Below, one piece after another: positions 1-55,773 of a stretch of 64,000 nt of DNA (positions are counted from its first letter, which is position 1; each line of letters starts with the position of its first letter). A model generated the notes under the pieces. The model made no database searches. It saw nothing but the letters and a program-made list of their open reading frames with translations, and was not told the origin of the DNA. A program made the translations under genes and the position numbers. The DNA is from Amphiscolops sp. MND2022. Its lineage: Eukaryota. The stretch covers positions 75,270,001 through 75,334,000 of the forward strand of contig OZ076409.1 in NCBI GenBank assembly GCA_964187785.1, written 5' to 3'.

Positions 1-742
1 TTGTGTTTAAAGGGTACAAATGTTTGGTGTTTTATGGATAACAGTACCTATTAGGTGTTTCGACGGTATGCAGTTGTGAACATAGTCATGAAACCTTGTG
101 GGGGGTAACGGTATATAGCACCGGAAGTCCAAAACGTTGGAGACAGGATAAGTTTTTTGGTTTTAAAACGTCTTTCGGCCTACTTTTGTCGACTATTATG
201 GTCTATTTTTGAAAAATAAAATTTTTCCATATAGTTTCAGAGACTCCGAAACCTCAACCAACATAACCGTTACCTTATGATAGCCTTTCAAGTTGGCCTG
301 GTGTCAACTTGGAAGGGCTATCCTTCAAAAATCATTAATCAAGTATGTTTTTGAGTATGTTTGTATTACTTTAGAATCAATTAGAGCTTAAAGGAAAGTT
401 TGCCAACGACAAAAACTATGTCGTGATGATTCCGTTATTAGAATACTTGTTAACAAAGTTTTAAAAACGTTGATTTTTTACATATCAAATGTGTCCTAAA
501 TGCCAGAAAACCTCTTTACCAAACAAATGGTATTGATTGAATTGTATATAACAGCTAATAAAAGTTCAAACTGAATATTACGTTTCATTTTGGAAGCTGA
601 AACGTCATTTTATAGTTTCATTAACGTCAACGCCACATACTTTACATCAACGCCCACCGTCCGTAGGCATGCCGAGGCATGCCTTTCGACGACGTATACC
701 AAATTCCTTTAACACAACACCCCCGAGCGCGGTAGCCGCTAG
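1..742 (+). mobile_element. Family A unit, 3' part (truncated by window edge)
   Basis: Matches the 3' part of 45636-47614. Carries the 44-bp hairpin (279-322), the TCAACGCC pair, the SphI palindrome (665-684) and a terminal CTAG. Confidence 0.7.
279..322 (+). other. Family A 44-bp subterminal bulged hairpin (representative)
   Basis: GATAGCCTTTCAAGTTGGC ctggt GTCAACTTGGAAGGGCTATC: 19 pairs including two G-T, with one bulged G. Also at ~2275, ~37332, ~39305, ~47151 and ~49147. Confidence 0.85.
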
Positions 743-2736
743 GTGCGGGGGGGTAACCCCAACTTTTTTCTTGGAGGAATCGGGTAGGGTCCTGATTCCG
801 AGTTCAGTGCCGCCAGCTATCGTTAAAAACCCATACCTTTTAAACCCGATCTCGGGAACTAACCACGCCCCTTCTTTAATTTTTTGGCCCCCACTCACTT
901 TTTGAGAGTAGATCGCCCCCCACTGGGTTCCAAGTTGGGCAAAAATGGAGGTCATGGGTAACGGGGACCGTTAAGGGGTAACTCAGGGGGTAAAATTTAT
1001 TTTTTGCGTCATATCTTTTCCCCCCGTGGATTTAGCGCTTCCGGTCAGCAGACAAAACCTCATGTACGTGATAAGGGGCCTCCGTAGGTCCAAACAAAAT
1101 TTTTCTATCATGCACCGTTACGGACTTGCCCCCCCGGCCCAACCGTTATTTTGCCGGAAATTGCCTTTTTTGACAGGAAAGGAGTCGTCTGAGCACGGAG
1201 TCGCTTGGTAATGTTTTGTAGTGCATCTGGAGACGTGTTGGGGGACATGTAGTTTGCCGACCCCAGTTTACCCCTCGGACGGGAAATGACCGTTATGTGA
1301 GTTTTAAAAATGCCCCCCTTCAATTTTCCCCGCAATTTCCGGTGTGAAGGAGTGGGAGTAGGGTGTCGGGTGCCATATATCAAAAGTAGGTTTAGACAAG
1401 GACCAACCGGAAACATGTGGTTTCGGACCCCCTGACCCAACCCGTTAGCCGCTATTAGGGTGATCGCCTCCTTTTTTTGCTGTTAAAACCGGAAAACGGG
1501 CATTGAGGGGTAAATATCTCGTGAACGCGTGGAGCAATCGTGTCCATCACTACTACAAGGTTTCATACCCATGATATGGTGCCTTCAGGGGGGCAAACAG
1601 ATTACCGCTATCTATCACCGTTACCGACTTGGCCCCCCAGCCTAACCGCTATGTGACCGGAAATTGCACTTTTTGAGCCCAAAGGGTCGATCCTAGCCGG
1701 GCAACGATAGGTAACATATTGTAGTACTCATTGAGACGAGTTGGGGGATCTAGTTTCAGTCACCCCCGTTACCCCTTGAGACCGGAAATGACCGTTATGT
1801 GAGTAGAATTGCAATTTTTATACCTTTTGAAGGGCATTTAGAAGCGGAAGGAATGGTAATAGGTGCTTGGACACTATATGATGTAATGGAGGTCGTGAGG
1901 AGAGCATTCGGAAGTAACCGTTACGTTGACCCCAAAGTCCCCCTGGTACCGTTAACAACCGGAAATGGCCAGATTTTGTGTTTGTAGGGTACAAATGTTT
2001 GGTATTTTATGGATAAAAGTACCTGGAAGGTGTTTTAAAGGCCTCCAGAAGTGAACATAGTCAAGAAACTTTGTGGGGGGTAACGGTATATAGCACCGGA
2101 AGTCCAAACCGTTAGTTACAGAATAGGTTTTTTGGTTTCAAAATGTCTTTAGGCGTAGTTTTGTGGGTGGAATCGTCATAATATCAACTAATACGGACTT
2201 TTTTCGGAAATAAAATTTTTTCACATTAGTTTCAGGGACCTCCAATGTTTCAGTCAACATAACCGTTACATTTTGATAGCCTTTCAAGTTGGCCTGGTGT
2301 CAACTTGGAAGGGCTATCCTTCTAAAATCGTTAATCAAGAGTGTTTTTGGGTAGGTATATGTTGCATTAGTACCAATTAGAGCTTCATCAACAGTTTGCC
2401 AACGGCAAAAACGATGTCGTGATAATTCCGTTATAAGAATATTAATTAACAAATTGTTTACAAAGTTGATTTTTTTCATTTAAAATGTGTCCTAATGCCA
2501 CCAAATTGAATAAAATAATAAATGGTATTGACTAAAACTAAATAACATTGAAAAAGAACATCAACATTTTTATTAGGTCTCATTATGGAAGCTGAAACCT
2601 CACGTTTTAACTTGATTAACGTCAACGCCACATACTTTACATCAACGCCCACCGTCTGTGGGCATGCCGAGGCATGCCCTTCGACGACGTATACCAAACA
2701 ACCTCCATATCTACACCCACCCGCGGTAGCAGCTAG
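743..2736 (+). mobile_element. Family A unit (1994 bp), putative non-autonomous cassette
   Basis: Starts GTGCGGGGGGGTAACCCC, has the GGGTAGGGTCC box 39 bp in, is rich in ACCGTTA/CCGGAAAT, and shares the 3' terminal block with family B. Mobility of family A is inferred from shared ends; no A-unit indel is seen. Confidence 0.7.
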
Positions 2737-3698
2737 GTGCCGGGATTTCTATTCGTTCGAGTATGTGGCGCGTGTGGGTAGGGCCCCTGGCGCGCTCTTT
2801 TATTTCGGGTACACCTACTCCAAATTCACGATGTGATTTCGACGATCTCGTAAACTAGCCACACGATTTGGCTGAAATTTGGCACACGTACCCCCCTCGG
2901 CACGGTGAAGATGATTTTCTACTGACGTTTTTCCCGCTAAACATTTTTTGTTGACCAAAATAACGGTTTTTGGGGTAAAATTTTCAACTTTTTTTAAATT
3001 TCATCTTATATCTCGCCACGGGTACACGCTAGCGCTTCCAAACCTTGCTGACGAAAGTTTGCAAACTGTCTCAGGAATGCTGTGTGAAATTTTCAGCTCA
3101 ATCGGACTTAAACTCGAGGAGATATAGCGTTTTTCCGGAGCGGGGGGGTTTCATTTTTCTAACGGTCCAGCTTATCTTTGCCATTTTTTCGAAAATGCAC
3201 TCGCCTAAAGGCCTCCCCTGGCCGGTTTTACTCCCAAAAAAACCATTTGGCCCTAAATACGGAGTTTCAGCGTTCTAGCATTCTCGGGCGAAAAGTTGTG
3301 GGACTTAGAAAATTTCAAAAATTTTCAAAAAAATTTTTTTTTGTTATTTGGGCCCCCAAAGTGGGGGAAAGGACCCCCCAACCATTAATTTGAGTGAATG
3401 CATGTGCAAAGCCCTTGTATAGAGGAGAAAAATGCCGTTTAGAACGTCTTTTTATCTTTACTCAACGTTGACTTATGACGTTTTGAAGGTGACCGTTAGA
3501 TATGGAAAATTGATGTTTTGAGTATTTATCTCATCTGAAAGCCATTGAGATACAACATGTTTTGCTCAAAACGGGTTTCATTGCAGTTTCGCTGTCTATT
3601 AACACCCTTTGGTGACTTTTGACATATTTTTGCTTTTATATAAAACCAATTTTTTGTGCATTTTTTCTTTTTTTTTCATCTAATATCTTGAAACAGTT

Positions 3699-3742
3699 GA
3701 GTACATTCCATCTCCCTTCCCGGGGGAGATGAGAATGTACTC
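3699..3742 (+). other. Family B 44-bp subterminal bulged hairpin (representative)
   Basis: GAGTACATTC CATCTCCC ttcccgg GGGAGATG A GAATGTACTC: arms are reverse complements with one unpaired A. Confidence 0.9.
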
Positions 3743-3907
3743 GCTAAAAGCCAAGAACTACGGCCAATACCTTCCCGAGCTATGCACTACAAATATTGCA
3801 TATGCATGCAGACCTTTTGATACATTTTTATCTTTGTAGATTGACTGGAAAAACCGAAAACTCTGTCCTGATTATACAAAGTTTCCTCACAACGACACAT
3901 GTTTACG

Positions 3908-3976
3908 TCAACGCCCCATAGTTCTTATCAACGCCCCCCGTCCGTGGGCATGCCGAGGCATGCCCTTCGACGACGT
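3908..3976 (+). other. 3' terminal block: 2x TCAACGCC, then GGGCATGCC-GA-GGCATGCCC palindrome, then TTCGACGACG (representative; in all intact A and B units)
   Basis: Nearly invariant across otherwise unalignable A and B bodies. The palindrome is at 3946-3965, and lies ~35-55 bp before the CTAG depending on the unit. Confidence 0.9.
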
Positions 3977-4006
3977 GCACCAAAATATATTCGAGCGCGG
4001 TAGCCG

Positions 4007-4013
4007 CTAGGTG
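4007..4013 (+). other. Junction / putative recombination or nicking site CTAG|GTG (representative of 47)
   Basis: CTRGGTG occurs at every intact unit boundary, and all four unit indels map to it. Confidence 0.85.
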
Positions 4014-7000
4014 CCGGGATTTCTATTCGATAAAGTATGTGGCGCGCCTTGGGTAGGGTCCCTTGCGCGCTCTTGGGTATGGTGTTCACCAGCTAGGAAA
4101 CAGGGGTCGATTTTTCGGGATCTCCTAAACTAGCCACACGATTTGGCTGAAATTTGGCACACGTACTCCCCTCGGCACGGTGAAGATGATTTCCTACTGA
4201 CATTTTTCCCGCAAAATTTTTTTTGTTGTCCAAAATAACGGTTTTTGGGGTAAAATTTTGAATTTTTTTTAAATTTTATCTTATATCTCGCCACGGGTTC
4301 ACGCTAGCGCTTCAAAACCCTGCTAAAGAAAGCTTGCAAACTGTCTCAGGAATGCGGTGTGAAATTTTCAGCTCAATCGGACTTAAACTCGGGGAGATAT
4401 AGAGTTTTTCCGGAGCGGGGGGGTTTCATTTTTCTAACGGTCCAGCTTATCTTTGCCATTTTTTCGAAAATGCACTCGCCTAAAGGCCTCCCCTGGCCGG
4501 TTTTATTCCCAGCAAAACCATTTGGCCCTAAATACGGAGTTTCAGCGTTCCAGCATTCCCGGGCGAAAAGTTGTGGGACTTAGAAAAGTTCAAAAAATTT
4601 CAAAAAAATTTTTTTCCGTTTTCCGCCCTCCCCCCCTAGGGGAAAAGACCCCCCAACCAGTAATTTGAGTGAATTCATGTGGAAAGGCCATGTTTAGAGG
4701 AGAAAAATACCGTTTAGATCGTCTTTTTATCTTAACTCAACGTTGACTTATGACGTTTTGAAGGTGATGTTTGGAGGTGTAAAGCACGTGAATAGTAAAC
4801 GTTATGAGTATTTATCTGATCTGAAAGCCATTGAGATGCAATATGGTTTGCTCAAAACGTAATTCATGGCAGTTTGGCAATCAATCAACACCCTTTGTTG
4901 TCGTTTGACAGACTTTTTTGTTGTTATAATAAAAAATTTTGTGTATTTATTCATTTTTTTCTCATCAAATAACTTGAAACAGTTGAGTACATTCCATCCC
5001 CCCCTTCCGGGGGAGATGAGAATGTACTCGCAAAAAGCACCGAACTACGACCCTTACCTTCCCGAGCTACGCAGTATAAGGACTACATATTGGTTCCGAC
5101 ATTTTCATAGAGTTAAATCTTGGTAATCTGTCTGGATATGCAGAAAAACCAGCACGTGCTTTTTTATACCAAGTTGCTCACAACGACAATTATTTTATAT
5201 CAACGCCCCCATATTTATCAACGCCCCCCGTCCGTGGGCATGCCGAGGCATGCCCTTCGACGACGTATACCAAGATATGTTCGAGCGCGTTAGCCTAGGT
5301 GGCCGTGTCTTTTCGACGTGCTTTTGCATTGAGGAGTGGGTAGGGCCCCGCGACGACCTAGAAGAATTGGATGCTCACCGAAACGTGCAGAATTCTACGA
5401 GATCTCATAGTTTGAGCCATACGATTTTTCTGAAATTTGGCATGTGGCCTGGAATTGGTGAGTAGGTAAAACGTGTAGAAGGTAATTTTTCCCAAATTCC
5501 ATTGTGAGAGGAGATATGGGCAAATAACGGACCCAAAATTGGGGAAAATGCACTTTTTTCAAGTTTGTCAGCCAATATCTCATTTCCAGGTGCCCGTAGC
5601 GTTCCGCACGTGGACGTCAATATTGCTCAACGCTGTTGGAAGAGTGCGTGGACAAATTTTGGTTCAAATCGGACTGAAACTTGGCGAGAAATTAACGGTT
5701 TTTTGGGCGTTTCCGGGGTAAATTTTTTAACGGTCCAGCTTATCTTTGCCATTTTTTCGAAAATGTACATGCCTAAAGGCCTCCCCCTGGCCGAATTTAC
5801 TCCCAGCAAACCCATTTGGCCCTAAATACGGAGTTTCAGCTGTCCAGCATTTCCGGGCGAAAAGTTGTGGGACTTTGAAAAATTTCAAAATTTTTCAAAA
5901 ATTTTTTTTTCCGTTTTCCGGGCCCCCCAATGAAGGGGAACGACCCCCCAACCAGTATTTTGAGTAATTTCATGAGGAAAGCCCATGTTTAGAGGAGAAA
6001 ATGCCGCTTAGAACGTCTTTTTATCTTAACTTGATGTTGACTTATGATCTTTTGAGTAGCGTATAACACGTGATCACAGTAGTGAAAACCCTAATTTTCA
6101 AAAATTTTCAAACCATAACGCATGAAAAGAACCTGGAAAAGGTTCCGATGGGTCAGTTGGGATGTCTGAAGCATGTGTACATTCCCGTAGTGTATAGCGG
6201 ATGTATTTGGGACTTATTAGAAATTGTGATATGTTTTATACAAGTCTTTGTTTCTCTTAGAATCTTATGCAGTTGAGTACATTCCATCTCCCTCTCAGGG
6301 GAGATGTGAATGTACGTTTGCCAAATGCCTTGTATATTTCACATCTTTGATGGATTCAAATAACTAAACAAGTGTGATTTGCGTTTGCCGAACCACTGCG
6401 ACAAAACATCCTAAATCTATAGCGAGTATGTATGGTTTTTGTCTTTAGTGTTTCGTCTTGTGTAGCCGACTTCCACATCCAAATATCAACGCCCGCCGTC
6501 CGTAGGCATGCCGAGGCATGCCTTTCGACGACGTATGCCAAATGCCCAATGCCACGCTGTCATTATCGCTAGGTGCCGGGATTTCTATTCGTTCGAGTAT
6601 GTGGCGCGTGTGGGTAGGGCCCCTGGCGCGCTCTTGTGTTTCGGGTTTTCCTACTCCTAAACCGCGTTCAGATTTTCGGGATCTCGTAAACTAGCCATAC
6701 GATTTGGCTGAAATTTGGCACACGTACCCCCCTCGGCACGGTGAAGATGATTCCCTACTGACGTTTTGCCCGCTAAACATTTTTTGTTGACCAAAATAAC
6801 GGTTTTTGGTGGAAAATTTTCAACTTTTTTTAAAATTCATCTTATATCTCGCCCCAGGTTTACGCTAGCGCTTCAAAACCTTGCTGACGAAAGTTTGCAA
6901 ACTGTCTCAGGAATGCGGTGTGAAATTTTCAGCTCAATCGGACTTAAACTCGAGGAGATATAGCGTTTTTCCGGAGCGGGGGGGTTTCATTTTTCTAACG

Positions 7001-7840
7001 GTCCAGCGTATCTTTGCCATTTTTTCGAAAATGCACTCGCCTAAAGGCCTCCCCTGGCCGGTTTTACTCCCAAAAAAACCATTTGGCCCTAAATACGGGG
7101 TTTCAGCGTTCTAGCATTTTCGGGCGAAAAGTTGTGGGACTTAGAATATTTCAAAAATTTTCAAAAAAATTTTTTTCCGTTATTTGGGCCCCCAATGTGG
7201 GGGAAAGGACCCCCCAACCAGTATTTTGAGTGAATGCATGTGCAAAGCGCTTGTTTAGAGGAGAAAAATGTCGTTTAGAACGTCTTTTTATCTTTACTCA
7301 ACGTTGACTTTTGTCGTTTTGAAGGTGACCGTTAGATATGGAAAATTGATGTTTTGAGTATTTATCTCATCTGAAAGCCATTGAGATACAACATGTTTTG
7401 CTCAAAACGTGTTTCATTGCAGTATCGCTGTCCATTAACACCCTTTGGTGACTTTTGACATATTTTTTTTATATATAATATCACTTTTTTGTGCATTTTT
7501 TCGTTTTTTTCTCATCTAATATCTTGAAACAGTTGAGTACATTCCATCTCCCTTCCCGGGGGAGATGAGAATGTACTCGCTAAAGGCCATGAACTACGGC
7601 CTATACCTTCCCGAGCTACGCACTACAATTATTGCATATGCATGCAGACCTTTTGATACATTTTTATCTTTATAGATTGACTGGACAAACTGAAAACTCT
7701 GTCCTGATTATACAAAGTTACCTCACAACGACACATGTTTACGTCAACGCTCCATACTTTACATCAACGCCCACCGTCCGTGGGCATGCCGAGGCATGCC
7801 CTTCGACGACGTATAGCCACTCAAACGCGGTAGCCGCTAG

Positions 7841-8899
7841 GTGGTCGGGTGTTTTACCTTTACAGAGTAGTGCGAGGCCGGGTAGGGTCCCGTGACGAGC
7901 TTGAAGAATAGCCTGCTAAAAATATACATGTTGGGGGGGGGGTCTACGGAGACGATCTCGAAAATGAACCGTTAGAATTTATTCAAACTTTGCATGCGGA
8001 CATAGAATCAAAATGTAAGAACTTTTTCCTACTGGCACTTTTCGCTCCATACCCTGTGACGGAAGTTATGAGCAAATGTATGTCGAAATCACCCATTTTT
8101 CGCATCTTTTCAGTCGCTGCTCCTCAGCCATTGGAGCCAATAGGCCGAAACTTTTTGTGTGAGGTACAAATGAAGTGGGCTACAAGATGGCCAAAAATTT
8201 TTGGCCAGGTCCTAATACATCGGGAAATATGATAGAAAATATACACCAAAAAAGGTGATTTTTTGACACTTTTTATCATGACTTCCGAAGTGCCCAATGG
8301 AATAGGTAGTGCCTATGGATAAAAATGAATGGTTTTATGTTTAATCGAAAGAGGAACAAATTTTGGTTTTTTTGGCCAAAAAAAAGTTCTACAAAAGTTC
8401 TACCAAAATTCGAAAAATTTAGAATTATTCCAAAAAAAAGGTTTTTTCGTCTTTTTTGATGTTTTTTCACATTTTGAGGTCAAAAACGAGGTACCCGAGC
8501 ACTTACACTGACTTTTTAGGGGAATTTGACACATTTAATTTTTATTTTTGGTTAATGATTACACTTTTAAAGTTTTAATCCCAAATTACTGCAATCTTTT
8601 CTCAGTTGTTGGAATTCTATGTTTGTTGGTAAATGACATGTAGAAAGATCGCCGATGTTCCGGGAGAACGCAAAGCGTTTCGGAGGAAGATTGGCGACAA
8701 ACGATAAAAGTCTGTGCAACTTATGTGCTTCCAATGAGGTGCTTGGTAGAATTATCAAGATGAAAAAATAACTTTTTTGAGGTAGTTTGTTGTGAAATGA
8801 AAACGATTAAAGTTTACAATTTTAAGTTGCACCAACTTCAGTTTCAATCAAGTATTGTCTGAATAGGCCTTACTGGTAGTTGGTACCTGCCTCCACTGG
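7841..8899 (+). mobile_element. Family C unit C1 (1059 bp)
   Basis: Starts GTGGTCGGG, has GGGTAGGGTCC 39 bp in, ends GCCTCCACTGG, and lacks the SphI block. Second copy at 55774-56833. Confidence 0.75.
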
Positions 8900-11800
8900 G
8901 TGGCCGGAAATTTTTTTTTCAGCAAAATCTTTGCCATTGGGGGAGGGGCCCCGGATGGCCAGTAGTACGGGATAGCTTCCTACCAAATCCAGGCGGAAAA
9001 AACGTGATTTCGGAAACTAGCCGTCAGAATTTGCTCAAATTTTGCATACGGCTTCCTATGACAATCCTAAGAACTAATCCCTACTGGCATTTTGCCCAAA
9101 AAACGCAAAAAGTTGGTCAAAATCTTAGTTTTTTGGTCAAAAAATGGCGTTTTTTCGAAAAAAATTTTTTTCAGAGACAATTACTCGTAACTGGTTCACC
9201 CAGCGCAAAAACGCCTAGCTGATTTATTGTTGGGCATTTCATGAGAAGTGCGTATACAAATTTTCGTCCAGATCGGAAACAAATTGACTAAGTATTAGCC
9301 GGAATTCGGACGCATTTTTTCGCAAATTTTTGAAAACCTAGTCTATCTCTGCCGTTTTTTGCCCAGATTTTTTTCCAGGTCCTCTCCTAAAGGCCTCCCC
9401 TGGCCGGTTTACTTCCCAGAAAAACCATTTGGCCCTAAATACGGAGTTTCAGCGTTCTAGCATTCCCGGGCGAAAAGATGTGGGACTTAGAAAAAATTCA
9501 AAATTTTTCAAAAAATTTTTTTTTCGTTTTCCGGCCCCCCAATGAAGGGGAACGACCCCCCAACGAGGATTTTTGGTGAATTCACGTGGAAAGGCCTTGT
9601 TTTGTGGAGCAAATTGCCGTTTAGAGCGACTTTTTATCTTAACTTGACGTTGACCTCTGTCGTTTTGAATTTGATATTAGTATGTGTTGAGCATGTGAAA
9701 AGTTGATGATTTCAGTTGTTCTCTCGTGTTCAAGCCATTGAGATACAAGCGGTAGTGATCAAAATGTGATTTATCGCAATTTGGTGGTGCTTTTGGTGTA
9801 TTTTGATTCTTTTAAATAAAAAGTTGTTCTTTATATATTTGGTGTATTGATTCAAATGAACAAGAAACAGTTGAGTACATTTCATCTCCCCCCTTGTGGG
9901 GGAGATGAGGATGTACCCGCTAAATGACACGCACAATGGCCCAATTTTATTTTTATGCGACGTTTTCTAGGCTTTTGCGCAAGCCCACTAAAATTTAGAC
10001 TGGTTTCCTTTTCTTTTACTCCAAAATTTTCCGTACTAACCACCTTACGCACCACCAGCTCAACGTAACATCTGTAACGTCAACGCCACACACTCTCACT
10101 AACGCCCACCGTCCGTGGGCATGCCGAGGCATGCCCTTCGACGACGTATGCCAAATAGCGCCACAGGGCGCAAACTTGTCCGCTAGGTGCCGGGATTTCC
10201 ATTCGATAAGGAATTCTGCGCGTGTGGGTAGGGCCCCTGGCGCGCTCCTGTGTTTTCGGTTTTCCTACTCCTAAATAGACCCCCTGAATTCCGGGATCTC
10301 CCAAACTATCCATACGATTTGGCTGAAATTTGGCACACGTACCCCCCTCGGCACGGTGAAGATGATTTCCTACTGACGTTTTTCCCGCTAAACATTTTTT
10401 GTTGACCAAAATAACGGTTTTTGGGGTAAAATTTTGAACTTTTTTTAAATTTCATCTTATATCTCGCCACGGGTACACGCTAGCGCTTCCAAACCTTGCT
10501 GACGAAAGTTTGCAAACTGTCTCAGGAATGCTGTGTGAAATTTTCAGCTCAATCGGACTTAAACTCGAGGAGATATAGCGTTTTCCCGGAGCGGGGGGGT
10601 TTCAATTTTCTAACGGTCCAGCTTATCTTTGCCATTTTTTCGAAAATGCACTCGCCTAAAGGCCTCCCCTGGCCGGTTTTATTCCCAACAAAACCATTTG
10701 GCCCTAAATACGGAGTTTCAGCGTTCCAGCATTCCCGGGCGAAAAGTTGTGGGACTTAGAAAAGTTCAAAAATTTTCAAAAAAAAATTTTTCCGTTATTT
10801 GGGCCCTCAAAGTGGGGGAAAAGACCCCCCAACCAGTAAAGCAAGTGAATGCATGTGGAAAGCCCTTGTTTAGACGAGAAAAATGCCGTCTAGAACGTCT
10901 TTTTATCTTAACTTGACATTGACTTTTGTCGTTTTGAAGGTGACCGTTAGATACGGAAAATTGATGTTTTGAGTATTTATCCCATCTGAAAGCCATTGAG
11001 ATACAACATGTTTTGCTCAAAACGTGTTTCATTGCAGTTTCGCTGTCCATTATCACCCTTTGGTGTCTTTTCACGTAATTTTCGTTTCTATAATAACAAT
11101 TTTTTTGTGTATTTATTCATTTTATTCTCATCAAATAACTTGAAACAGTTGAGTACATTCCATCTCCCTTCCCGGGGGAGATGAGAATGTACTCGCTAAA
11201 GGTCAGGAACTACGGTCTATATCTTCCACAACACAAATGGGATTGCAAATGGTTTCAGTTTGTCGCAGAAAACTTCTTTTTGCCCTCTGTGACTCGACAA
11301 AATGAACGTTTCTTACTTACTTTGAAACTCAGCATACCACAACTCATCTCTAACGTCAGCGCCCCCCTACTTGCATCAACGCCCACCGTCCGTGGGCATG
11401 CCGAGGCATGCCCTTCGACGACGTATACCAAGATATACCTGGAGCGCGGTAGCCGCTAGGTGGCCGGAAATTTTTTTTTTCATCAAAATCTTTGCCATTG
11501 GGGGAGGGGCCCCGGATGGCCAGTAGTACGGGATAGCTTCCTACCAAATCCAGATGGAAAAAACGTGATTTCGGAAACTAGCCGTCAGAATTTGCTCAAA
11601 TTTTGCATACGGCTTCCTATGACAATCCTAAGAACTAATCCCTACTAGCATTTTGCCCAAAAAACGCAAAAAGTTGGTCAAAATCTTAGTTTTTTGGTCG
11701 AAAAATGGCGTTTTTTCGAAAAAATTTTTTTTCAGAGACAATTACTCGTAACTGGTTCACCCAGCGCAAAAACGCCTAGCTGATTTATTGTTGAGGACTT

Positions 11801-14800
11801 CATGAGGAGTGCGTATACAAATTTTCGTCCAAATCGGATAAAAGTTGATTGAGAAATAACTGAAAATTTGAGGCATTTTTTTGGAAATTTTTGAAAACCT
11901 AGTCTATCTCTGCCGTTTTTTGCCCAGATTTTTTTCCAGGTCCTCTCCTAAAGGCCTCCCCTGGCCGGTTTACTTCCCAGAAAAACCATTTGGCCCTAAA
12001 TACGGAGTTTCAGCGTTCTAGCATTCCCGGGCGAAAAGATGTGGGACTTAGAAAAAATTCAAAATTTTTCAAAAATTTTTTTTTCGTTTTCCGGCCCCCC
12101 AATGAAGGGGAACGACCCCCCAACGAGGATTTTTGGTGAATTCACGTGGAAAGGCCTTGTTTTGTGGAGCAAATTGCCGTTTAGAGCGACTTTTTATCTT
12201 AACTTGACGTTGACCTCTGTCGTTTTGAATTTGATATTAGTATGTGTTGAGCATGTGAAAAGTTGATGATTTCAGTTGCTCTCTCGTGTTCAAGCCATTG
12301 AGATACAAGCGGTAGTGATCAAAATGTGATTTATCGCAATTTGGTGGTGCTTTTGGTGTATTTTGATTCTTTTAAATAAAAAGTTGTTCTTTATATATTT
12401 GGTGTATTGATTCAAATGAACAAGAAACAGTTGAGTACATTTCATCTCCCCCCTTGTGGGGGAGATGAGGATGTACCCTCTAAATGACACGCACAATGGC
12501 CCAATTTTATTTTTATGCGACGTTTTCTAGGCTTTTGCGCAAGCCCACTAAAATTTAGACTGGTTTCCTTTTCTTTTACTCCAAAATTTTCCGTACTAAC
12601 CACCTTACCCACCACCAGCTCAACGTAACATCTGTAACGTCAACGCCACACACTCTCACTAACGCCCACCGTCCGTGGGCATGCCGAGGCATGCCCTTCG
12701 ACGACGTATGCCAAATAGCGCCACAGGGCGCCCAATTTTGTCTAGGTGCCGGGATTTCCATTCGATAAGGAATTCTGCGCGTGTGGGTAGGGCCCCTGGC
12801 GCGCTCCTGTGTTTTCGGTTTTCCTACTCCAAATTCACACCCCAGTTATCTCCGATCTCGTAAACTATCCATACGATTTGGCTGAAATTTGGCACACGTA
12901 CCCCCCTCGGCACGGTGAAGATGATTTCCTACTGACGTTTTTCCCGCTAAACATTTTTTGTTGACCAAAATAACGGTTTTTGGGGTAAAATTTTCAACTT
13001 TTTTTAAATTTTATCTTATATCTCGCCACGGGTACACGCTAGCGCTTCCAAACCTTGCTGACGAAAGTTTGCAAACTGTCTCAGGACTGCTGTGTGAAAT
13101 TTTCAGCTCAATCGGACTTAAACTCGAGGAGATATAGCGTTTTTCCGGAGCGGGGGGGTTTCATTTTTCTAACGGTCCAGCTTATCTTTGCCATTTTTTC
13201 GAAAATGCACTCGCCTAAAGGCCTCCCCTGGCCGGTTTTATTCCCAGCAAAACCATTTGGCCCTAAATACGGAGTTTCAGCGTTCCAGCATTCCCGGGCG
13301 AAAAGTTGTGGGACTTAGAAAATTTCAAAAATTTTCAAAAATTTTTTTTCCGTTATTTGGGCCCCCAAAGTGGGGGAAAAGACCCCCCAACCAGTAAAGC
13401 AAGTGAATGCATGTGCAAAGCCCTTGTTTAGAGGAGAAAAATGCCGTTTAGAACGTCTTTTTATCTTGGCTCAACGTTGACTTATGACGTTTTGAAGGTG
13501 ATGTTTGGAGGTGTAAATCACGTGAATAGTAAACGTTATGAGTATTTATCTGATCTGAAAGCCATTGAGATGCAATATGGTTTGCTCAAAACGTAATTCA
13601 TGGCAGTTTGGCAATCAATCAACACCCTTTGTTGTCGTTTGACATACTTTTTTGTTGTTATAATAAAAATTTTGTGTATTTGTTCATTTTTTTCTCATCA
13701 AATAACTTGAAACAGTTGAGTACATTCCATCCCCCCTTCCGGGGGAGATGAGAATGTACTCGCAAAAAGCAGCGAATTACGGCCCTTACCTTCCCGAGCT
13801 ACGCAGTATAAGGATTACATATTGGTTCCGACATTTTCATAGAGTTAAATCTTGGTAATCTGTCTGGATATGCAGAAAAACCAGCACGTGCTTTTTTATA
13901 CCAAGTTGCTTACAACGACAATTATTTTATATCAACGCCCCCATATTTATCAACGCCCCCCGTCAGTGGGCATGCCGAGGCATGCCCTTCGACGACGTAT
14001 ACCAAGATATACATCGAGCGCGTTAGCCTAGGTGCCGGTGTTTTTTTACACAATGGCGGATGTTGCGCGGTTGGGGAGGGTCCCTGACGCGCTCCCGGGA
14101 TTTCGGATTTTTTAACCTTTACGTACCCATCAAAAATTTTGGGATCTCGAAAACTAGCCGTACGATTTGGCTGAAATTTGGCACACGTACCCCCCTCGGC
14201 ACGGTGAAGATGATTCCCTACTGACGTTTTGCTCGCTAAACATTTTTTGTTGACCAAAATAACGGTTTTTGGGGTAAATTTTTCAACTTTTTTTAAATTT
14301 TATCTTATATCTCGCCACGGGTTTACGCTAGCGCTTCCAAACCTTGCTGACGAAACCTTGCAAACTGTCTTAGGAATGCGGTGTGAAATTTTCAGCTCAA
14401 TCGGACTCAAACTCGGGGAGATATAGCGTTTTTCCGGAGCGGGGGGGTTTCATTTTTCTAACGGTCCAGCTTATCTTTGCCATTTTTTCGAAAATGCACT
14501 CGCCTAAAAGCCTCCCCTGGCCGGTTTTATTCCCAGCAAAACCATTTGGCCCTAAATACGGAGTTTCAGCGTTCCAGCATTTCCGGGCGAAAAGTTGTGG
14601 GACTTAGAAAATTTCAAAAATTTTCAAAAAATTTTTTTTCCGTTATTTGGGCCCCCAAAGTGGGGGAAAAGACCCCCCAACCAGTAAAGCAAGTGAATGC
14701 ATGTGCAAAGCCCTTGTTTGGACGAGAAAAATTCTGTTTAGAACGTCTTTTTATCTTGGCTCAACGTTGACTTATGACGTTTTGAAGGTGATGTTTGGAG

Positions 14801-17800
14801 GTGTAAAGCAAGTGAATAGTAAACGTTATGAGTATTTATCTGATCTGAAAGCCATTGAGATGCAATATGGTTTGCTCAAAACGTAATTCATTGCAGTTTG
14901 GCAATCAATCAACACCCTTTGTTGTCGTTTGACATACTTTTTTGTTGTTATAATAAAAAATTTTGTGTATTTATTCATTTTTTTCTCATCAAATAACTTG
15001 GAACAGTTGAGTACATTCCATCCCCCCCTTCCGGGGGAGATGAGAATGTACTCGCAAAAAGCACCGAACTACGGCCCTTACCTTCCCGAGCTACGCAGTA
15101 TAAGGATTACATATTGGTTCCGACGTTTTCATAGAGTTATATCTTGGTAATCTGTCTGGATATGCCGAAAAATCAGCACGTGCCTTTTAATACCAAGTTG
15201 CTCACAACGACAATTATTTTATATCAACGCCCCCATATTTATCAACGCCCCCCGTCCGTGGGCATGCCGAGGCATGCCCTTCGACGACCCGCACCAAAAT
15301 ATGCGTTAGCGCGGTAGCTGCTAGGTGGCCGGAAATTTTTTTTTCATCAAAATCTTTGCCATTGGGGGAGGGGCCCCGGATGGCCAGTAGTACGGGATAG
15401 CTTCCTACCAAATCCAGATGGAAAAAACGTGATTTTGGAAACTAGCCGTCAGAATTTGCTCAAATTTTGCATACGGCTTCCTATAACAATCCTAAGAACT
15501 AATCCCTACTGGCATTTTGCCCAAAAAACGCAAAAAGTTGGTCATAATCTTAGTTTTTTGGTCAAAAAATGGCGTTTTTTCGAAAAATTTTTTTTTCAGA
15601 GACAATTACTCGTAACTGGTTCACCCAGCGCAAAAACGCCTAGCTGATTTATTGTTGGGCACTTCATGAGGAGTGCGTATACAAATTTTCGTCCAGATCG
15701 GAAAAAAAATGACTAAGTATTAGCCGGAATTCGGACGCATTTTTTCGCAAATTTTTGAAAACCTAGTCTATCTCTGCCGTTTTTTGCCCAGATTTTTTTC
15801 TAGACCCTCTCCTAAAGGCCTCCCCTGGCCGGATTACCTCTCAGCAAAACCATTTGGCCCTAAATACGAAGTTTCAGCGTTCTAGCATTCTCGGGCGAAA
15901 AGTTGTGGGACTTAGAAAAATTTTTTTGAAAACGCAAAATGTGTAAAGTCAACTTCAGGCCTCCCAAAGTCAAGGAACTTCCACACAACTAGTATTGCAA
16001 GTGAATGCATGTGGAAAGTACTCGGATAGACGAGAAAAATGAGCTATTATAAATCTCTGTAGCTTAACCTGACGTTGACTTATGACAATTTTAGTGTGAG
16101 CTTGCTATGTGAGAAAAAAATTCAAAATTGGAAATCGAAGCTAAGTCTCATCCAAAACTCATCGGAACACGTTCAATCCATCCCAGAGCGGTTTAATTCC
16201 AGCTATATAATGCAGCAACACTATTCAAGACCATTTGATCCACTTACATTAGTTTTGACACCGTATTATTCATCCGAGAGCACAAAACAGTTGAGTACAT
16301 TCCATCTCCCTTTCGGGGGAGATGAGAATGTACTCGCTAAAGTCCAGGTACTACAGCCCATATTTGCTTTTATGCGACGCTCTTATGCTAGTGCGCATAC
16401 TTTTTAATCGTTTAACTGAATTTTCTTCTGTCTGCACTTTGACTTTGACTTGACATATAGTGAACGTTTTGTCTTACAACTTACAAATGAGTAACGTCAA
16501 CGCCCCATCCTTGCATCAACGCCCACCGTCCGTGGGCATGCCGAGGCATGCCCTTCGACGACGTATGCCAAGATATATCCCAAGCGCGGTAGCAGCTAGG
16601 TGCCGGGATTTCTATTCGATAAAGTATGTGGCGCGTGTGGGTAGGGTCCCTGGCGCGCTCTTGGGTATGGTGTTCACCAGCTAGGAAATAGGGGTCGATT
16701 TTTCGGGATCTCCTAAACTAGCCACACGATTTGGCTGAAATTTGGCACACGTACTCCCCTCGGCACGGTGAAGATGATTTCCTACTGACGTTTTTCCCGC
16801 AAAATTTTTTTTGTTGTCCAAAATAACGGTTTTTGGGGTGAAATTTTGATTTTTTTTTAAATTTTATCTTATATCTCGCCACCGGTTTACGCTAGCGCTT
16901 CAAAACCCTGCTAAAGAAAGCTTGCAAACTGTCTCAGGAATGCTGTGTGAAAATTTCAGCTCAATCGGACTTAAACTCAGGGAGATATAGCGTTTTTCCG
17001 GAGCGGGGGGGTTTCATTTTTCTAACGGTCCAGCTTATCTTAGCCATTTTTTCGAAAATGTACTCGCCTAAAGACCTCCCCTGGCCGGTTTTATTCCCAG
17101 CAAAACCATTTGGCCCTAAATACGGAGTTTCAGCGTTCCAGCATTCCCGGGCGAAAAGTTGTGGGACTTAGAAAAGTTCAAAAATTTTCAAAAAATTTTT
17201 TTTCCGTTTTCCGCCCTCCCCCCCGAGGGGAAAAGACCCCCAACCAGTAATTTGAGTGAATTCATGTGGAAAGGCCATGTTTAGAGGAGAAAAATCTCGT
17301 TTAAATCGTCTTTTTATCTTTATTCAACGTTGACTTATGACGTTTTAAAGGTGATGTTTGGAGGTGTGAAGCACGTGAAAAGTAAACGTTATGAGTATTT
17401 ATCTGATCTGAAAGCCATTGAGATGCAACCTGTATTGCTCAAAACGTAATTCATATCAGTTTGGTAGTCAATCAACACCCTTTGTTGTCATTTGACATCT
17501 TTTTTTGTTGATATAAGAAAAAATTTCGTGTATTTATTCATTTTTTTCTCATCAAATAACTTGAAACAGTTGAGTACATTCCATCCCCCCTTCACGGGGG
17601 AGATGAGAATGTACTCGCAAAAAGCCCCGAACTACGGCCCTTACCTTCCTGAGCTACGCAGTATAAAGATTGCATATTGGTTCCGACATTTTCATAGAGT
17701 TATATCTTGGTAATCTGTCTGGGTATGCAGAAAAACCAGCACGTGCTTTTTTATACCAAGTTGCTCACAACGACATTTATTTTATATCAACGCCCCCATA

Positions 17801-37794: not shown

Positions 37795-40508
37795 GTGCGG
37801 GGGGGTAACCCCAACAAATATATTGGAGGATTCGGGTAGGGTCCTGAATCCGATTTTAACTCTAATAGCTATCGATAGGAAATCTTGCAAAAATTTCGGG
37901 ATCTCGTGATCTAACCATAGGATTTTAAAGTTGGAGCGGCCCCCACCAGATTTTCCGAAAATTAGCGCCCCCCACCGGTTTCCATACCCCGGAAAATTTT
38001 TTTCTGGCCACACGGGCGACCGTTAGGGGGTCATTTTAGGGGTAAAATTCATATTGGGCCACATAACTTTTTTTCTGTTGATTTAAAACTTTGGAACCCT
38101 GCTAAAAGTTTCTTGACCGTGTTGCAGGGGCCCCGAAGGTCCAAACCAAATTTTTCTATCTTGAAGCTATCTCCAAGTACCCCCCCGCTCAAACCGTTAT
38201 TTTTCCGGAAACGCAGGTTTTTGACCCGGAAGGAGTCGTCTGAGCGCGGGGTCGTTAGGTGATGTATTGGGGACGGCCTTGAGACGAAGTGGGGGACAAG
38301 TAGTTTGCCAACCTCAATTTACCCCCCGGACGGGAAATGACCGTTATATGAGCGTGAAAAATGCCCCCCTCCACGTTTTACCGCTATTTCCGGTGTGAAG
38401 GAGTGGGAGTAGCGCGTCGGGTGTTATATAACAAAAGTAGGTTTAGACAAGGACCTATCGGAAACATGTAGTTTGGGACCCCCTGGACCAACCCGTTAGC
38501 GGGAAATGGGGCTTCCGCCTCCTTTTTTTAGTGCTAAAACCGTAAAATGGGCATTGAGGGGTAAATATCTCGTGAACGCGTGGAGCAATCGTGTCCATCA
38601 CTACTACAAGGTTTCATACCCATGATATGGTGCCTTCAGGGGGGCAAACAGATTTCCGCTATCTATCACCGTTACCGACTTGTCCCCCCAGCCTAACCGC
38701 TATGTGACCGGAAATGTCACTTTTTGAGCCCAAAGGGTCGGACCCAGCCTGGGAACGTTAGGTAACTTATTGCAGTACTCAATGAGACGAGTTGGGGGAT
38801 ATAGTTTCAGTCAACCCCCGTTACCCCTTGGGACCGGAAATGACCGTTATGTGGGTAAATTTGCAATTTTTATACTTTTTCAAGTGTATTTAGGTGCGGA
38901 AGGAGTGGTAATAGGTGCTTGGACACTATATGAGGTAAGGGAGGACGTGAGGCGAGCATTCGGAAATAACCGTTATGTTGACCCTAAAGTCCCCCTAGTA
39001 CCGTAAACGACCGGAAATGGTCAAATTTTGTGTCTATTGGGTACAAATGTTTTGTATTTTGTAGATAAAAGTATCTATTAGGTGTTTCGACGGTCTACAG
39101 TAGTGAACATAGTCATGAAACCTTGTGGGGGGTAACGGTATATAGCACCGGAAGTCAAACCGTTGGAGACAGGATAGGTTTTTTGGTTTTAAAATGTCTT
39201 TCGGCGTAATTTTTTCGACTCTTGTGGACTATTTTTAAAAATTAAAGTTTTTCCATATAGTTTCAGAGACTCCGAAACCTCAACCAACATAACCGTTACC
39301 TTATGATAGCCTTTCAAGTTGGCCTGGTGTCAACTTGGAAGCGCTATCCTTCTGAAATCGTTAATCAAGAGTGTTTTTGGGTAGGTATATATTGCATTAG
39401 TACCAATTAGAGCTTCATCAACAGTGTACCAACGACAAAAACTATGCCGTCATGATTCCGTTATTAGAATCATAGTGAGCAAATTGTTGAAAAAAATGGT
39501 TTTTTCCATACAAAATGTGTCCTAAATGCCAGGAAACCTATTTACCTAACAAATGGTATTAATTGGAATGTTTGTAACAGATTTTGTAACGGACTCAAAC
39601 TCAGGGAGATATAGCGTTTTTCCGGAGCGGGGGGGTTTCATTTTTCTAACGGTCCAGCTTATCTTTGCCATTTTTCGAAAATGTACTCGCCTAAAGACCT
39701 CCCCTGGCCGGTTTTATTCCCAGCAAAACCATTTGGCCCTAAATACGGAGTTTCAGCGTTCCAGCATTCCCGGGCGAAAAGTTGTGGGACTTAGAAAAGT
39801 TCAAAAATTTTCAAAAAATTTTTTTCCGTTATTTGGGCCCCCAAAGTGGGGGAAAAGACCCCCCAACCAGTAAGGCAAGTGAATGCATGTGCAAAGCCCT
39901 TGTTTAGAGGAGAAAAATGCCGTTTAGAACGTCTTTTTATCTTGGCTCAACGTTGACTTATGACGTTTTGAAGGTGATGTTTGGAGGTGTGAAGCACGTG
40001 AATAGTAAACGTTATGAGTATTTATCTGATCTGAAAGCCATTGAGATGCAATATGGTTTGCTCAAAACGTAATTCATGGCAGTTTGGCAATCAATCAACA
40101 CCCTTTGTTGTCGTTTGACATACTTTTTTGTTGTTATAATAAAAAATTTTGTGTATTTATTCATTTTTTTCTCATCAAATAACTTGAAACAGTTGAGTAC
40201 ATTCCATCCCCCCCTTCCGGGGGAGATGAGAATGTACTCGCAAAAAGCACCGAACTACGGCCCTTACCTTCCCGAGCTACGCAGTATAAGGATTACATAT
40301 TGGTTCCGACATTTTCATAGAGTTAAATCTTGGTAATCTGTCTGGATATGCAGAAAACCAGCACGTGCTTTTTTATACCAAGTTGCTTACAACGACAATT
40401 ATTTTATATCAACGCCCCCATATTTATCAACGCCCCCCGTCCGTGGGCATGCCGAGGCATGCCCTTCGACGACGTATACCAAGATATACGTCGAGCGCGT
40501 TAGCCTAG
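37795..40508 (+). mobile_element. A/B fusion: 3'-truncated family A unit joined to a 5'-truncated family B unit
   Basis: A sequence runs to ~39580 (…tttgtaacag), then filler attttgtaac, then B sequence from ggactcaaactc (39591). The SphI block and CTAGGTG junction expected between them are missing. Confidence 0.85.
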
Positions 40509-45635: not shown

Positions 45636-48600
45636 GTGCGGGGGGGTAACCCCAACTTTTTTCTTGGAGGAATCGGGTAGGGTCCTGATTCCGAGTTCAG
45701 TGCCGCCAGCTATCGTTAAAAACCTATACCTTTTAAACCCGATCTCGAGAACTAACCACGCCCCTTCTTTGATTTTTTGGCCCCCACTCACTTTTTGATA
45801 GTAGATCGCCCCCCACTGGGTTCCAAGTTGGGCAAAAATGGAGGTCAAGGGTAACGGGGACCGTTAAGGGGTAACTCAGGGGGTAAAATTTATTTTTTGC
45901 GTCATATCTTTTCCCCCCGTGGATTTAGCGCTTCCGGTCAGCAGACAAAACCTCATGTACGTGATACGGGGCCTCCGTAGGTCCAAACAAAATTTTTCTA
46001 TCATGCACCGTTACGGACTTGCCCCCCCCCCGGCCCAACCGTTATTTTGCCGGAAATTGCACTTTTTGACCGGGAAGGAGTCGTCTGAGCACGGAGTCGT
46101 TTGGTAATGTTTTGTAGTGCATCTGGAGACGTGTTGGGGGACATGTAGTTTGCCGGCCCCAGTTTACCCCCCGGACGGGAAATGACCGTTATGTGAGTTT
46201 TAAAATTACCCCCCTTCAATTTTCCCCGTTATTTCCGGTGTGAAGGAGTGGGAGTAGCGCGTCGGGTGCCATATATCAAAAGTAGGTTTAGACAAGGACC
46301 AACCGGAAACATGTGGTTTGGGACCCCCTGACCCAACCCGTTAGCCGTTATAAGGGTGATCGCCTCCTTTTTTTACACTCAAAACCGGAAAACGGGTATT
46401 GAGGGGTAAATATCTCGTGAACGCGTGGAGCAATCGTGTCCATCACTACTACAAGGTTTCATACCCATGATATGGTGCCTTCAGGGGGGCAAACAGATTA
46501 CCGCTATCTATCACCGTTACGGACTTGGCCCCCCAGCCCAACCGCTATGTGACCGGAAATGTCACTTTTTGAGCCCAAAGGGTCGATCGCAGCCTGGGAA
46601 CGTTAGGTAACTTATTGTAGTACTCATTGAGACGAGTTGGGGGACATAGTTTCAGTCACCCCCCGTTACCCCTTAGGACCGGAAATGACCGTTTTGTGAG
46701 TGAAATTGCAATTTTTATACTTTTTGAAAGGCATTTAGGTGCAGAAGGAGTGGTAATAGGTGCTTGGACACTATATAATGATAAGGAGGACGTGAGGCGA
46801 GCATTCGAAAAAAACCGTTATGTTGACCCCAAAGTCCCCCTGGTACCGTAAATGACCGGAAATGGTCAAATTTTGTGTTTAAAGGGTACAAATGTTTGGT
46901 GTTTTATGGATAACAGTACCTATTAGGTGTTTCGACGGTATGCAGTTGTGAACATAGTCATGAAACCTTGTGGGGGGTAACGGTATATAGCACCGGAAGT
47001 CCAAAACGTTGGAGACAGGATAAGTTTTTTGGTTTTAAAACGTCTTTCGGCCTACTTTTGTCGACTATTATGGTCTATTTTTGAAAAATAAAATTTTTCC
47101 ATATAGTTTCAGAGACTCCGAAACCTCAACCAACATAACCGTTACCTTATGATAGCCTTTCAAGTTGGCCTGGTGTCAACTTGGAAGGGCTATCCTTCAA
47201 AAATCATTAATCAAGTATGTTTTTGAGTATGTTTGTATTACTTTAGAATCAATTAGAGCTTAAAGGAAAGTTTGCCAACGACAAAAACTATGTCGTGATG
47301 ATTCCGTTATTAGAATACTTGTTAACAAAGTTTTAAAAACGTTGATTTTTTACATATCAAATGTGTCCTAAATGCCAGAAAACCTCTTTACCAAACAAAT
47401 GGTATTGATTGAATTGTATATAACAGCTAATAAAAGTTCAAACTGAATATTACGTTTCATTTTGGAAGCTGAAACGTCATTTTATAGTTTCATTAACGTC
47501 AACGCCACATACTTTACATCAACGCCCACCGTCCGTAGGCATGCCGAGGCATGCCTTTCGACGACGTATACCAAATTCCTTTAACACAACACCCCCGAGC
47601 GCGGTAGCCGCTAGGTGCGGGGGGGTAACCCCAACTTTTTTCTTGGAGGAATCGGGTAGGGTCCTGATTCCGAGTTCAGTGCCGCCAGCTATCGTTAAAA
47701 ACCCATACCTTTTAAACCCGATCTCGGGAACTAACCACGCCCCTTCTTTAATTTTTTGGCCCCCACTCACTTTTTGAGAGTAGATCGCCCCCCACTGGGT
47801 TCCAAGTTGGGCAAAAATGGAGGTCATGGGTAACGGGGACCGTTAAGGGGTAACTCAGGGGGTAAAATTTATTTTTTGCGTCATATCTTTTCCCCCCGTG
47901 GATTTAGCGCTTCCGGTCAGCAGACAAAACCTCATGTACGTGATAAGGGGCCTCCGTAGGTCCAAACAAAATTTTTCTATCATGCACCGTTACGGACTTG
48001 CCCCCCCGGCCCAACCGTTATTTTGCCGGAAATTGCCTTTTTTGACAGGAAAGGAGTCGTCTGAGCACGGAGTCGCTTGGTAATGTTTTGTAGTGCATCT
48101 GGAGACGTGTTGGGGGACATGTAGTTTGCCGACCCCAGTTTACCCCTCGGACGGGAAATGACCGTTATGTGAGTTTTAAAAATGCCCCCCTTCAATTTTC
48201 CCCGCAATTTCCGGTGTGAAGGAGTGGGAGTAGGGTGTCGGGTGCCATATATCAAAAGTAGGTTTAGACAAGGACCAACCGGAAACATGTGGTTTCGGAC
48301 CCCCTGACCCAACCCGTTAGCCGCTATTAGGGTGATCGCCTCCTTTTTTTGCTGTTAAAACCGGAAAACGGGCATTGAGGGGTAAATATCTCGTGAACGC
48401 GTGGAGCAATCGTGTCCATCACTACTACAAGGTTTCATACCCATGATATGGTGCCTTCAGGGGGGCAAACAGATTACCGCTATCTATCACCGTTACCGAC
48501 TTGGCCCCCCAGCCTAACCGCTATGTGACCGGAAATTGCACTTTTTGAGCCCAAAGGGTCGATCCTAGCCGGGCAACGATAGGTAACATATTGTAGTACT

Positions 48601-54726: not shown

Positions 54727-55773
54727 GTGGTCCGGGGTAGTTCCCCACATTATTTAGGGCGAGGCCGGGGAGGGTCCCGATGCCGAGCTTAATTTTCGCG
54801 TGTCGAACTATATCATCTAGCACACCAGTCAAAAAACGGCGATTTTCGAATTGAACCGATAAAACTTCTTTAAACTTTGCATGTGTACTTATCTTGCCGA
54901 TGTACAAATGATGTTCTGCTGGTCAAACATGACCCTATTACTTGGCGGGAAGTTATGAGCAAATGATCGGTTTTTTCACCCTGTTTCGGTACTTTTTCGC
55001 TGCGATATCTGCAGCATGTGGATACAATTGGCTGATACTTTGCATGCGAGGCATAAATGTTGTCAGGTGTTTGCATGCCAAAAATCATTAGGCTGGTGAC
55101 ACTAGGCTGGGAGATAGAAGTAGAAAAAGTAGTGGAAAATTGTGAATTCTCCGGTCATCGCGTCATAACTTCCGAACTTTTATACAGATGATGTTTTCTT
55201 TAGCGGTAGCAGTACAGTCGATGTGTTTTCAACATCGCGTGGTCAGGATAAAAAATAAAAAATAAAAAAGTTCTACAAAAGTTCTACAAAAATTCTAAAA
55301 ATTGCGAATTTTTTCAAAAAAAAATTTTTTTCGGATTCCATTGTATTTTTATACCAGGAATTCAAAAATCACATTATTTATCGTGTCAACGGCGCCAAAA
55401 TGGGTTTATTTTTAATATTGACCGCTTTCACCAGCTTGATATACCAGTTTCAGTAAGTATTTGAAAAATACTCAGGGTTGAGGCAAATGCATAAGTAGCA
55501 CGATTTTAAAACGTAATTTTATTTGTCACCGGTGTTCCGAGGGATGCACAGCAGCACGCAGGAACAACGGTGACCCGGAAGAAAGGCTGTAGATACTTGT
55601 TACGACCGAAGGCAGTCACTGTTTAGTTTTGTTCGACATGATTATGTACGTCGTTGCGATGTGCATCGGCAAAAATTCACATCAGTGACCCCAAAGTGGA
55701 ACAAGTTATACATGAATTGAGAACAGGCAGTACCGTTCGGCCCCCTGGTAATTGGTAGCTTTGCCTCCACTGG
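54727..55773 (+). mobile_element. Family C unit C2 (1047 bp), single copy in the window
   Basis: Starts GTGGTCCGGGG and ends GCCTCCACTGG. Shares AAAAAAGTTCTACAAAAGTTCTAC, AAACTTTGCATG and CGGAAGTTATGAGCAAATG with C1 but is otherwise strongly diverged. Absent from copy 1. Confidence 0.8.

Follow-up and report, generated by a model that had tools for sequence, protein, structure and literature searches.

Two lineages of Helitron-like elements have been defined, HLE1, whose elements start with TC and insert at A^T, and HLE2, characterised by insertion at T^T and by the DUF6570 domain (PMC11417382). In the model drawn for Helraiser, the single-stranded circle is, in the words of a figure legend, 'possibly converted' into a double-stranded one (PMC4778049, one of the sources consulted, together with PMC6431247, PMC5148889 and PMC6765114). 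Here, we describe a stretch of 64,000 nt from Amphiscolops sp. MND2022 (positions 75,270,001-75,334,000 of contig OZ076409.1, in the 1.07-Gb assembly GCA_964187785.1), referred to below as the window; counts called genome-wide concern the whole assembly. From 1 to 64000, on the + strand, the window consists of non-autonomous Helitron-like elements arranged head to tail, in an array that extends past both of its edges, the flanks being more of the same array. Nearly every unit contains one internal hairpin of about 44 nt. The explanation that we favour, with a probability of roughly 45%, is that this hairpin folds on the displaced + strand or on the circle and works there in cis, most likely as a site of second-strand priming or of protein loading.

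The elements end in GTG...CTRG (CTAG or CTGG) and the units of the window form families of about 1.98 kb (A), 1.28 kb (B) and 1.05 kb (C and D, which terminate in CTGG). The joint CTAG^GTG occurs 44 times on the + strand and 0 times on the - strand, and all 44 unit joints marked by a palindrome are of this form. At 739..745 (+), for example, with the cut at 742/743, the 3' end of the upstream element meets the 5' end of the next one. Even where neighbours belong to different families, the joint is exact to the base and lies at this single target motif, and no satellite separates them. Sampled stretches from several chromosomes have the same organisation as the window and, genome-wide, one end motif is found in 4,998 copies and the B hairpin pattern in 2,144, for 0 with reversed controls. 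The 27 open reading frames (ORFs) of the window are all merely 100-136 aa long, and a search for short tandem repeats in it returned three trivial matches.

That these units are non-autonomous Helitron-like elements is almost certain. Helitron_like_N, used as a search model, retrieved numerous intact frames, about 2,370 aa long, from the window's region and strand, and in ten neighbourhoods ORFs of 2,216-2,589 aa stand amid array units, eight of them with both element ends in view. These partner ORFs match Helitron_like_N and PIF1 and possess the HUH and Y..KY motifs, with weak Pfam E-values of about 1e-8, whereas an HLE1-like ORF of this genome gives 1e-59 to 1e-71. The complete A element at 743..2736 (+) matches, over its first ~1.18 kb, the 5' end of an autonomous element encoding a Rep-helicase (RepHel) of 2,216 aa, while the 5' ends of the B family, represented by the complete element at 2737..4010 (+), match another one, with a 2,328-aa RepHel ORF, over ~0.76-0.8 kb; coding and non-coding 3' ends have ~86 nt in common. 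Both ends are common to units and partners, in which a two-tyrosine HUH Rep is fused to a PIF1 helicase, and there are neither terminal inverted repeats (TIRs) at the very ends nor target-site duplications, the apparent host flanks having nothing but the CTDG target motif. The homologs P0003 and P0009 carry a C-terminal GIY-YIG domain (Pfam) and one homolog an OTU domain; the C-terminus of the B partner itself gave no GIY-YIG match in Pfam, the motif being seen by eye only. In a quick helicase tree, whose contrast consisted of eight other Helitron rows of this genome (four DUF6570-positive, HLE1-like rows excluded), 22 relatives fall into one clade with a long branch (SH-aLRT 99), and relatives of about 30% identity are present in other data.

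An initial annotation of this DNA had described, in families A and B, 44-nt hairpins differing in sequence and sharing one architecture. The reference copies, at 279..322 (A, +) and 3699..3742 (B, +), indeed measure 44 nt, begin with GA, end with TC and fold as described, with an outer stem of 10-11 bp and one unpaired purine on the 3' arm. Read from its base, the A fold has an 11-bp stem, a single unpaired G, a further 8 bp and a loop of 5 nt; in the B fold, a stem of 10 bp is followed by one unpaired A, 9 bp (the ninth pair being T-G) and again a 5-nt loop. Their DNA folding z-scores are -5.9 and -7.0, with 0/200 shuffles equally stable (the RNA fold was computed as well), and their sequences are unrelated, as claimed (p = 0.54 against shuffled hairpins). 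The window contains six copies of A, five of them identical, including a second one at 2275..2318 (+) inside the complete unit 743-2736, and 39 copies of B, of which nine are identical to the reference. Two other types lie in shorter elements, D at 8651..8696 (+; 1.06-kb element 7841-8899) and C at 55527..55572 (+; 1.05-kb element 54727-55773); C is related to D and unrelated to A and B.

Across a larger set of copies, the shared architecture is looser than in the reference ones. The 46 distinct B variants (49 rows less three distant, B-like ones kept out of the alignment) range in length from 42 to 46 nt, and only four of them measure 44 nt, whereas 25 of 30 distinct A variants are 44 nt long. 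The bulge on the 3' arm is retained in 46/46 B variants, with a register that shifts by one and a dinucleotide that is AG in 35, GT in 4, GA in 3, GC in 3 and TG in 1, and the bulged base is not always a purine; the loop variants quoted for B do occur. In A, the irregularity follows position 11 of the 5' arm in 17/30 variants and lies at 5-10 or 13-19 in the others, and a subfamily with a perfect, bulge-free stem is present on three contigs (7/10 matches in genome searches). The strand asymmetry that had been expected from G-T pairs is not borne out: outside the central zone, we count 10 distinct G-T versus 8 A-C events (p = 0.81), and the + strand folds better in 24/30 variants of A and in only 20/46 of B.

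Two side observations concern family A. Its units contain 12 copies of a hexamer which we take to be Myb-type, versus 0.9 expected (maximum 4 in 200 shuffles, in the unit of locus L018), one of them just upstream of the A hairpin. In addition, a lone A hairpin, 93-96% identical over 52-59 nt, is found at L183:1494-1553 (G000:C5, ~8.4315 Mb), with a basal stem 8 bp longer (26-bp stem), beside a decayed unrelated repeat and without Helitron ends; it is possibly a source, or a stray capture.

The hairpin had also been called the most conserved island of its region, and this is the case among internal sequences. When units are selected on ends and length, without regard to the hairpin, column conservation reaches 0.93 in the hairpin versus 0.72 in the best other internal window for B-size units (38 distinct of 144), and 0.94 versus 0.75 for A-size units (22 distinct of 92); the block of the terminal palindrome does as well, at 0.89 and 0.96, respectively. 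Native arms fold better than swapped ones in both hairpins. As for covariation, which the initial annotation had proposed as a check, 4/19 pairs of B have changed on both sides (8 cells, a value reached by 0/500 shuffles), and the signal is weak in A (2/19 pairs, 27/500 shuffles). The A and B hairpins are under selection, with some compensatory changes.

Of 294 complete units below 6 kb, delimited by their ends, 292 match one of the hairpin types (A 106, B 155, A+B compound 5, C/D 20, E 6), the remaining two containing an A variant and a fifth hairpin type. Homology was found only between C and D, leaving A, B, C/D and E as four unrelated sequences; they are nevertheless of similar size (42-46 nt, 19-21 bp), with one hairpin per unit at a variable internal position. 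Unrelated hairpins in essentially all units would be unexpected from drift; Markov-resampled units attain a stem score of at least 13 in 2/41 cases. We regard as very improbable that they are neutral palindromes homogenised in the course of rolling-circle copying, be it by gene conversion or by template switching. The arms are near-perfect repeats and the arrays include long recent duplications, in line with such a process, but arm correction should erase the bulge, which B always keeps while its base varies.

Whether the site is read as a fold or as a duplex has to be considered too, as an inverted repeat or cruciform could be bound by a dimeric protein of the host or the element (a GIY-YIG domain, a chromatin factor), folding of single-stranded DNA (ssDNA) being then incidental. 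The sequence conservation of both arms, the lack of G-T over A-C bias and the perfect palindrome variant of A would suit a duplex site. It fits poorly with an arm spacing that is not constant (differences of up to 4 nt among B variants and 3 nt among those of A), and with at least four unrelated sequences in one role, whose type is independent of the types of the 5' and 3' ends (the B hairpin is associated with several of each). Such a site therefore appears quite improbable to us.

That nearly all units have a single hairpin, of one or another unrelated type, speaks for a requirement in cis. Families that free-ride could dispense with a product acting in trans, and no such family was encountered. 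The main rival to the cis fold is that the hairpin is a small-RNA cargo, namely a gene of the microRNA or short hairpin RNA type with its promoter in the shared 5' part, damping host silencing or regulating the autonomous elements. A 19-21-bp stem with a central irregularity and two conserved arms is compatible with this, as are the lone A hairpin with its 26-bp stem outside Helitron ends and the further multi-copy hairpins of 45-56 nt after the ORFs of coding elements. Precursors of Drosha and Dicer obey a size rule, for which 44 nt with a 3-5-nt loop is short; the stem does not exceed 21 bp, no basal stem is conserved, and arm asymmetry is not consistent. Moreover, the arms match eight autonomous elements no better than shuffles do (best 5-8 mismatches). 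Perfect host targets of the 5' arms were sought outside the arrays, and the 15 exact matches are 12 complete hairpin copies, one truncated copy and two isolated 17-nt matches, for about one chance match expected per pattern by our estimate. Rfam gave 0 matches in the window at the gathering threshold, and no T-run that would serve as an RNA polymerase III terminator follows the A or B hairpin on either strand. As one copy in nearly every unit suits a role in cis better than one in trans, we hold a small-RNA cargo to be unlikely, although miR820, in a rice CACTA element, provides a precedent (PMC3459959).

The multi-copy hairpins of the coding elements constitute families of 45-56 nt, in 2-3 copies located 3' of the ORFs, with invariant G-U pairs and a + strand preference (L030:3048-3203, L039:2134-6469, L029:4899-5211 and L043:3013-3946); some retain the apical part and swap the outer stem, a behaviour suggestive of RNA cis-elements or a small-RNA cluster. 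Separately, positions 3703-3710 of the window, a near-invariant portion of the 5' arm of B, read like an 8-mer target site, presumably that of miR-1/206, which may be due to chance.

The coding elements have a partial counterpart of these hairpins. The hairpin-bearing middle part of the units has no match there, and the A and B hairpins are absent from eight whole coding elements (except for matches in merged upstream units) and from 24 delimited tails. A different hairpin, of 33 nt, with an 11-12-bp stem and a bulge on the 3' arm, is present in 14/24 tails (6/12 distinct ones); its conservation is 0.97 versus 0.58 and 0.71 in its flanks, a contrast to be read knowing that it was picked by its arms. 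Three other distinct tails have hairpins of other sequence, with scores of 13, 18 and 22. The tail scan skipped four of 20 tails, which lacked a clear stop or end, and three related metagenome contigs showed no hairpin at a score of at least 12 in the little sequence that they contain beyond the ORF. Two accessory ORFs occur in coding elements: the first (L049:4979-6130, 383 aa) resembles OB folds of the POT1/CTC1/RPA type, at a score of 1825 for a tool's mark of 2300, so that its predicted ssDNA-binding likeness is weak, and the second (L049:3313-3972, 219 aa) has no Pfam match.

The initial annotation had interpreted the hairpins by analogy with integron attC sites and the ends of IS200/IS605, which are recognised as folded ssDNA. 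Bulged stems of similar size across families and the cassette-like look of the array would agree with recombination sites marking where units are cut and joined. The position of the hairpins does not: the distance to the 3' end is 320-580 nt for A and 290-970 nt for B, and they never coincide with the joints, which are at CTRG^GTG. Exchange is thus not at the hairpin base, the extrahelical base is not fixed and the bulge is dispensable in A, and the coding partners are devoid of A and B hairpins, whereas IS200/IS605 recognition hairpins stand at a fixed short distance and are shared by all partners. A chimeric unit at 37795-40508, made of A 1-1786 joined to B from position 367 and containing both hairpins, has its breakpoint ~230 nt beyond the A hairpin and 600 nt ahead of the B hairpin. 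A recombination site of the attC or IS200/IS605 type was therefore rejected as barely credible. The ssDNA setting itself remains appropriate for HUH rolling-circle elements, and, altogether, the observation was partly confirmed and its interpretation partly supported.

A better candidate for a recognition fold is a separate hairpin near the 5' end, at a fixed offset of 37-47 nt from GTG. In the A element (776..799, +) and the B element (2768..2795, +), it has the same conserved loop core on a stem of different sequence, the outer stem being only 42% identical between families (89 variants). RNAalifold supported only four inner pairs, as the outer stems shift register, and an arm-swap control was used instead: native arms fold at -8.6 kcal/mol versus -5.7 +/- 0.24 when swapped between families (48 sequences). 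Its fixed offset, conserved loop and covarying stem, and its presence in coding and non-coding elements alike, are what is expected of an HUH-recognised fold, and it is likely a Rep-recognition hairpin. A metagenome contig with a 30%-identical RepHel starts with an identical 5' hairpin core (L158:15-42), so that this end signal is conserved beyond this genome.

At the other end, a subterminal palindrome at 665..684 (+), 60-75 nt before CTAG, is a candidate termination hairpin; its pattern has 43 matches in the window, at 43/44 unit ends, and 4,998 in the genome. It also matches what we take to be two abutting p53-type half-sites, which makes a DNA-damage-responsive element conceivable instead of, or in addition to, a terminator hairpin. 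A short hairpin 10-12 nt before the 3' end, as in HLE1, was seen by eye in some end types only.

The flanks of the elements inform on the insertion target. When the search was restricted to 3' ends without a following G, the next bases were AT in 12/15 cases and TT in 3/15. Genome-wide, the most frequent 5' end of B follows a G in every copy except one, its non-AG cases being CTGG, CTTG and CTCG, and, among the flanks listed, apparent host sequence at left edges ends in CTAG or CTTG in 6/7. The apparent target reads CTDG^NT, a mimic of the joint CTRG^GT. From this we infer that every joint or element end would itself be suitable for insertion, so that unlike families stack exactly, as in a cassette array; such self-targeting would be a simple route to multi-family arrays. 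Runs of units in the same order (1-7800 versus ~46,900-54,700, and 10,100-16,600 versus 58,000-63,200, all in the window) point to segmental duplication added to insertion. Two arrays of opposite orientation meet at L128 (G000:C1, ~23.977-23.980 Mb).

According to Helitron biology, Rep would nick at ^GT, guided by the 5' subterminal hairpin; the + strand would be peeled off and its circle closed at CTRG^GT; and the circle would join a target resembling the joint, whereby arrays would grow into themselves. The internal hairpin might stay folded on the peeled strand or the circle and have a priming or protein-loading role that tolerates a central bulge. By analogy with the single-strand origins of rolling-circle plasmids, which serve as our model, it most likely helps the single-stranded circle to become double-stranded rather than marking a cut site. 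The identity of the elements, the universality in cis, the preservation of shape over sequence, the selection on the hairpins, the counterpart in coding elements and, weakly, the OB-fold likeness of an accessory ORF all support this cis fold.

Several results weigh against it. The coding elements do without A and B hairpins, and 3/12 distinct tails score only 11-11.5, a level reached by 17/36 Markov controls. The A hairpin of L183 has a longer basal stem and is not enclosed by Helitron ends. Controls with a slid register equal the covariation score of B (0.069 versus 0.068), both arms are conserved in sequence (0.92-0.96) and compensatory changes are few, a pattern more like that of a sequence-specific site or a small RNA than of a pure shape. 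G-T changes do not exceed A-C ones, and B folds equally on both strands. Finally, Helraiser circles in which nothing but the two ends flanked a plasmid cargo could be recovered from cells and were active as double-stranded DNA, so that a canonical Helitron does without such an internal hairpin (PMC4778049).

Our results nevertheless describe a hairpin feature that is real and selected, in a Helitron lineage that is unusual and whose mixed arrays appear to build themselves. With their one conserved hairpin each, natural mini-elements of ~1 kb make the second-strand step of Helitrons testable by a single deletion. Moreover, tools that look for TC starts or TIRs would overlook a clade whose ends are GTG...CTRG and whose target is CTDG^NT. 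Taken as a whole, it is a tentative and somewhat doubtful proposal that this is a third Helitron lineage (RepHel-GIY-YIG), whose end-joint targeting yields integron-like mixed arrays of thousands of units, and whose interchangeable satellite hairpin would be, for a eukaryotic rolling-circle transposon, the first second-strand origin to be defined or, if not, a selfish small-RNA gene. The literature searched contained no account of elements with GTG...CTRG ends, of insertion at CTDG^NT or of internal hairpins as an obligatory part; Repbase and the HELIANO supplements (unclassified elements, GIY-YIG case), which lay outside this search, may bear on novelty.

The comparison with known systems places these elements close to HLE1 and Helraiser by several features: a RepHel with HUH, two tyrosines and PIF1, a 3' CTRR end, the absence of target duplication, non-autonomous partners with both ends, and head-to-tail joints (PMC11417382 and PMC4778049). 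They differ from HLE1 by a 5' GTG instead of TC, a CTDG^NT target instead of A^T, a 3' palindrome 60-75 nt from the end, weak Pfam scores and homologs with a C-terminal GIY-YIG. Conserved internal hairpins are not among the HLE1 features listed in the sections of PMC11417382 and PMC4778049 that we used. With HLE2 (Helitron2/Helentron; HINE/DINE, FoHeli), a group marked by asymmetric subterminal inverted repeats of 11-18 nt, they have in common a transposase of 2,200-2,600 aa, a hairpin near the 5' end and the OTU domain of one homolog. DUF6570, which four control ORFs of the genome do match, is lacking in them, as is insertion at T^T; they end in CTRG, and their 22 helicase rows are separate. 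A captured GIY-YIG is described in an HLE2 of Sphagnum, as a single case (PMC11417382). The IS91/ISCR elements resemble them by a Y2 HUH Rep and orientation-specific insertion beside a tetranucleotide target (PMC10288648); the present ones are eukaryotic and have a fused helicase, long multi-family arrays and an internal hairpin. The likeness to attC and IS200/IS605 is limited to bulged hairpins of similar size and a cassette-like array, as the 44-nt hairpins are not at exchange points and a RepHel takes the place of an integrase or Y1 TnpA. Tandem and centromeric Helitron arrays were reportedly described by Xiong et al. in 2016, as cited in PMC13404089. Clustered autonomous and non-autonomous Helitrons of this kind, in plants and in Meloidogyne (PMC13404089), are close to the array described here, which differs by its exact, satellite-free joining of unlike families at a single motif. 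Lastly, miR820 likewise is a conserved hairpin within a DNA transposon, there carried as cargo (PMC3459959); the present hairpins are shorter and occur in nearly every unit.

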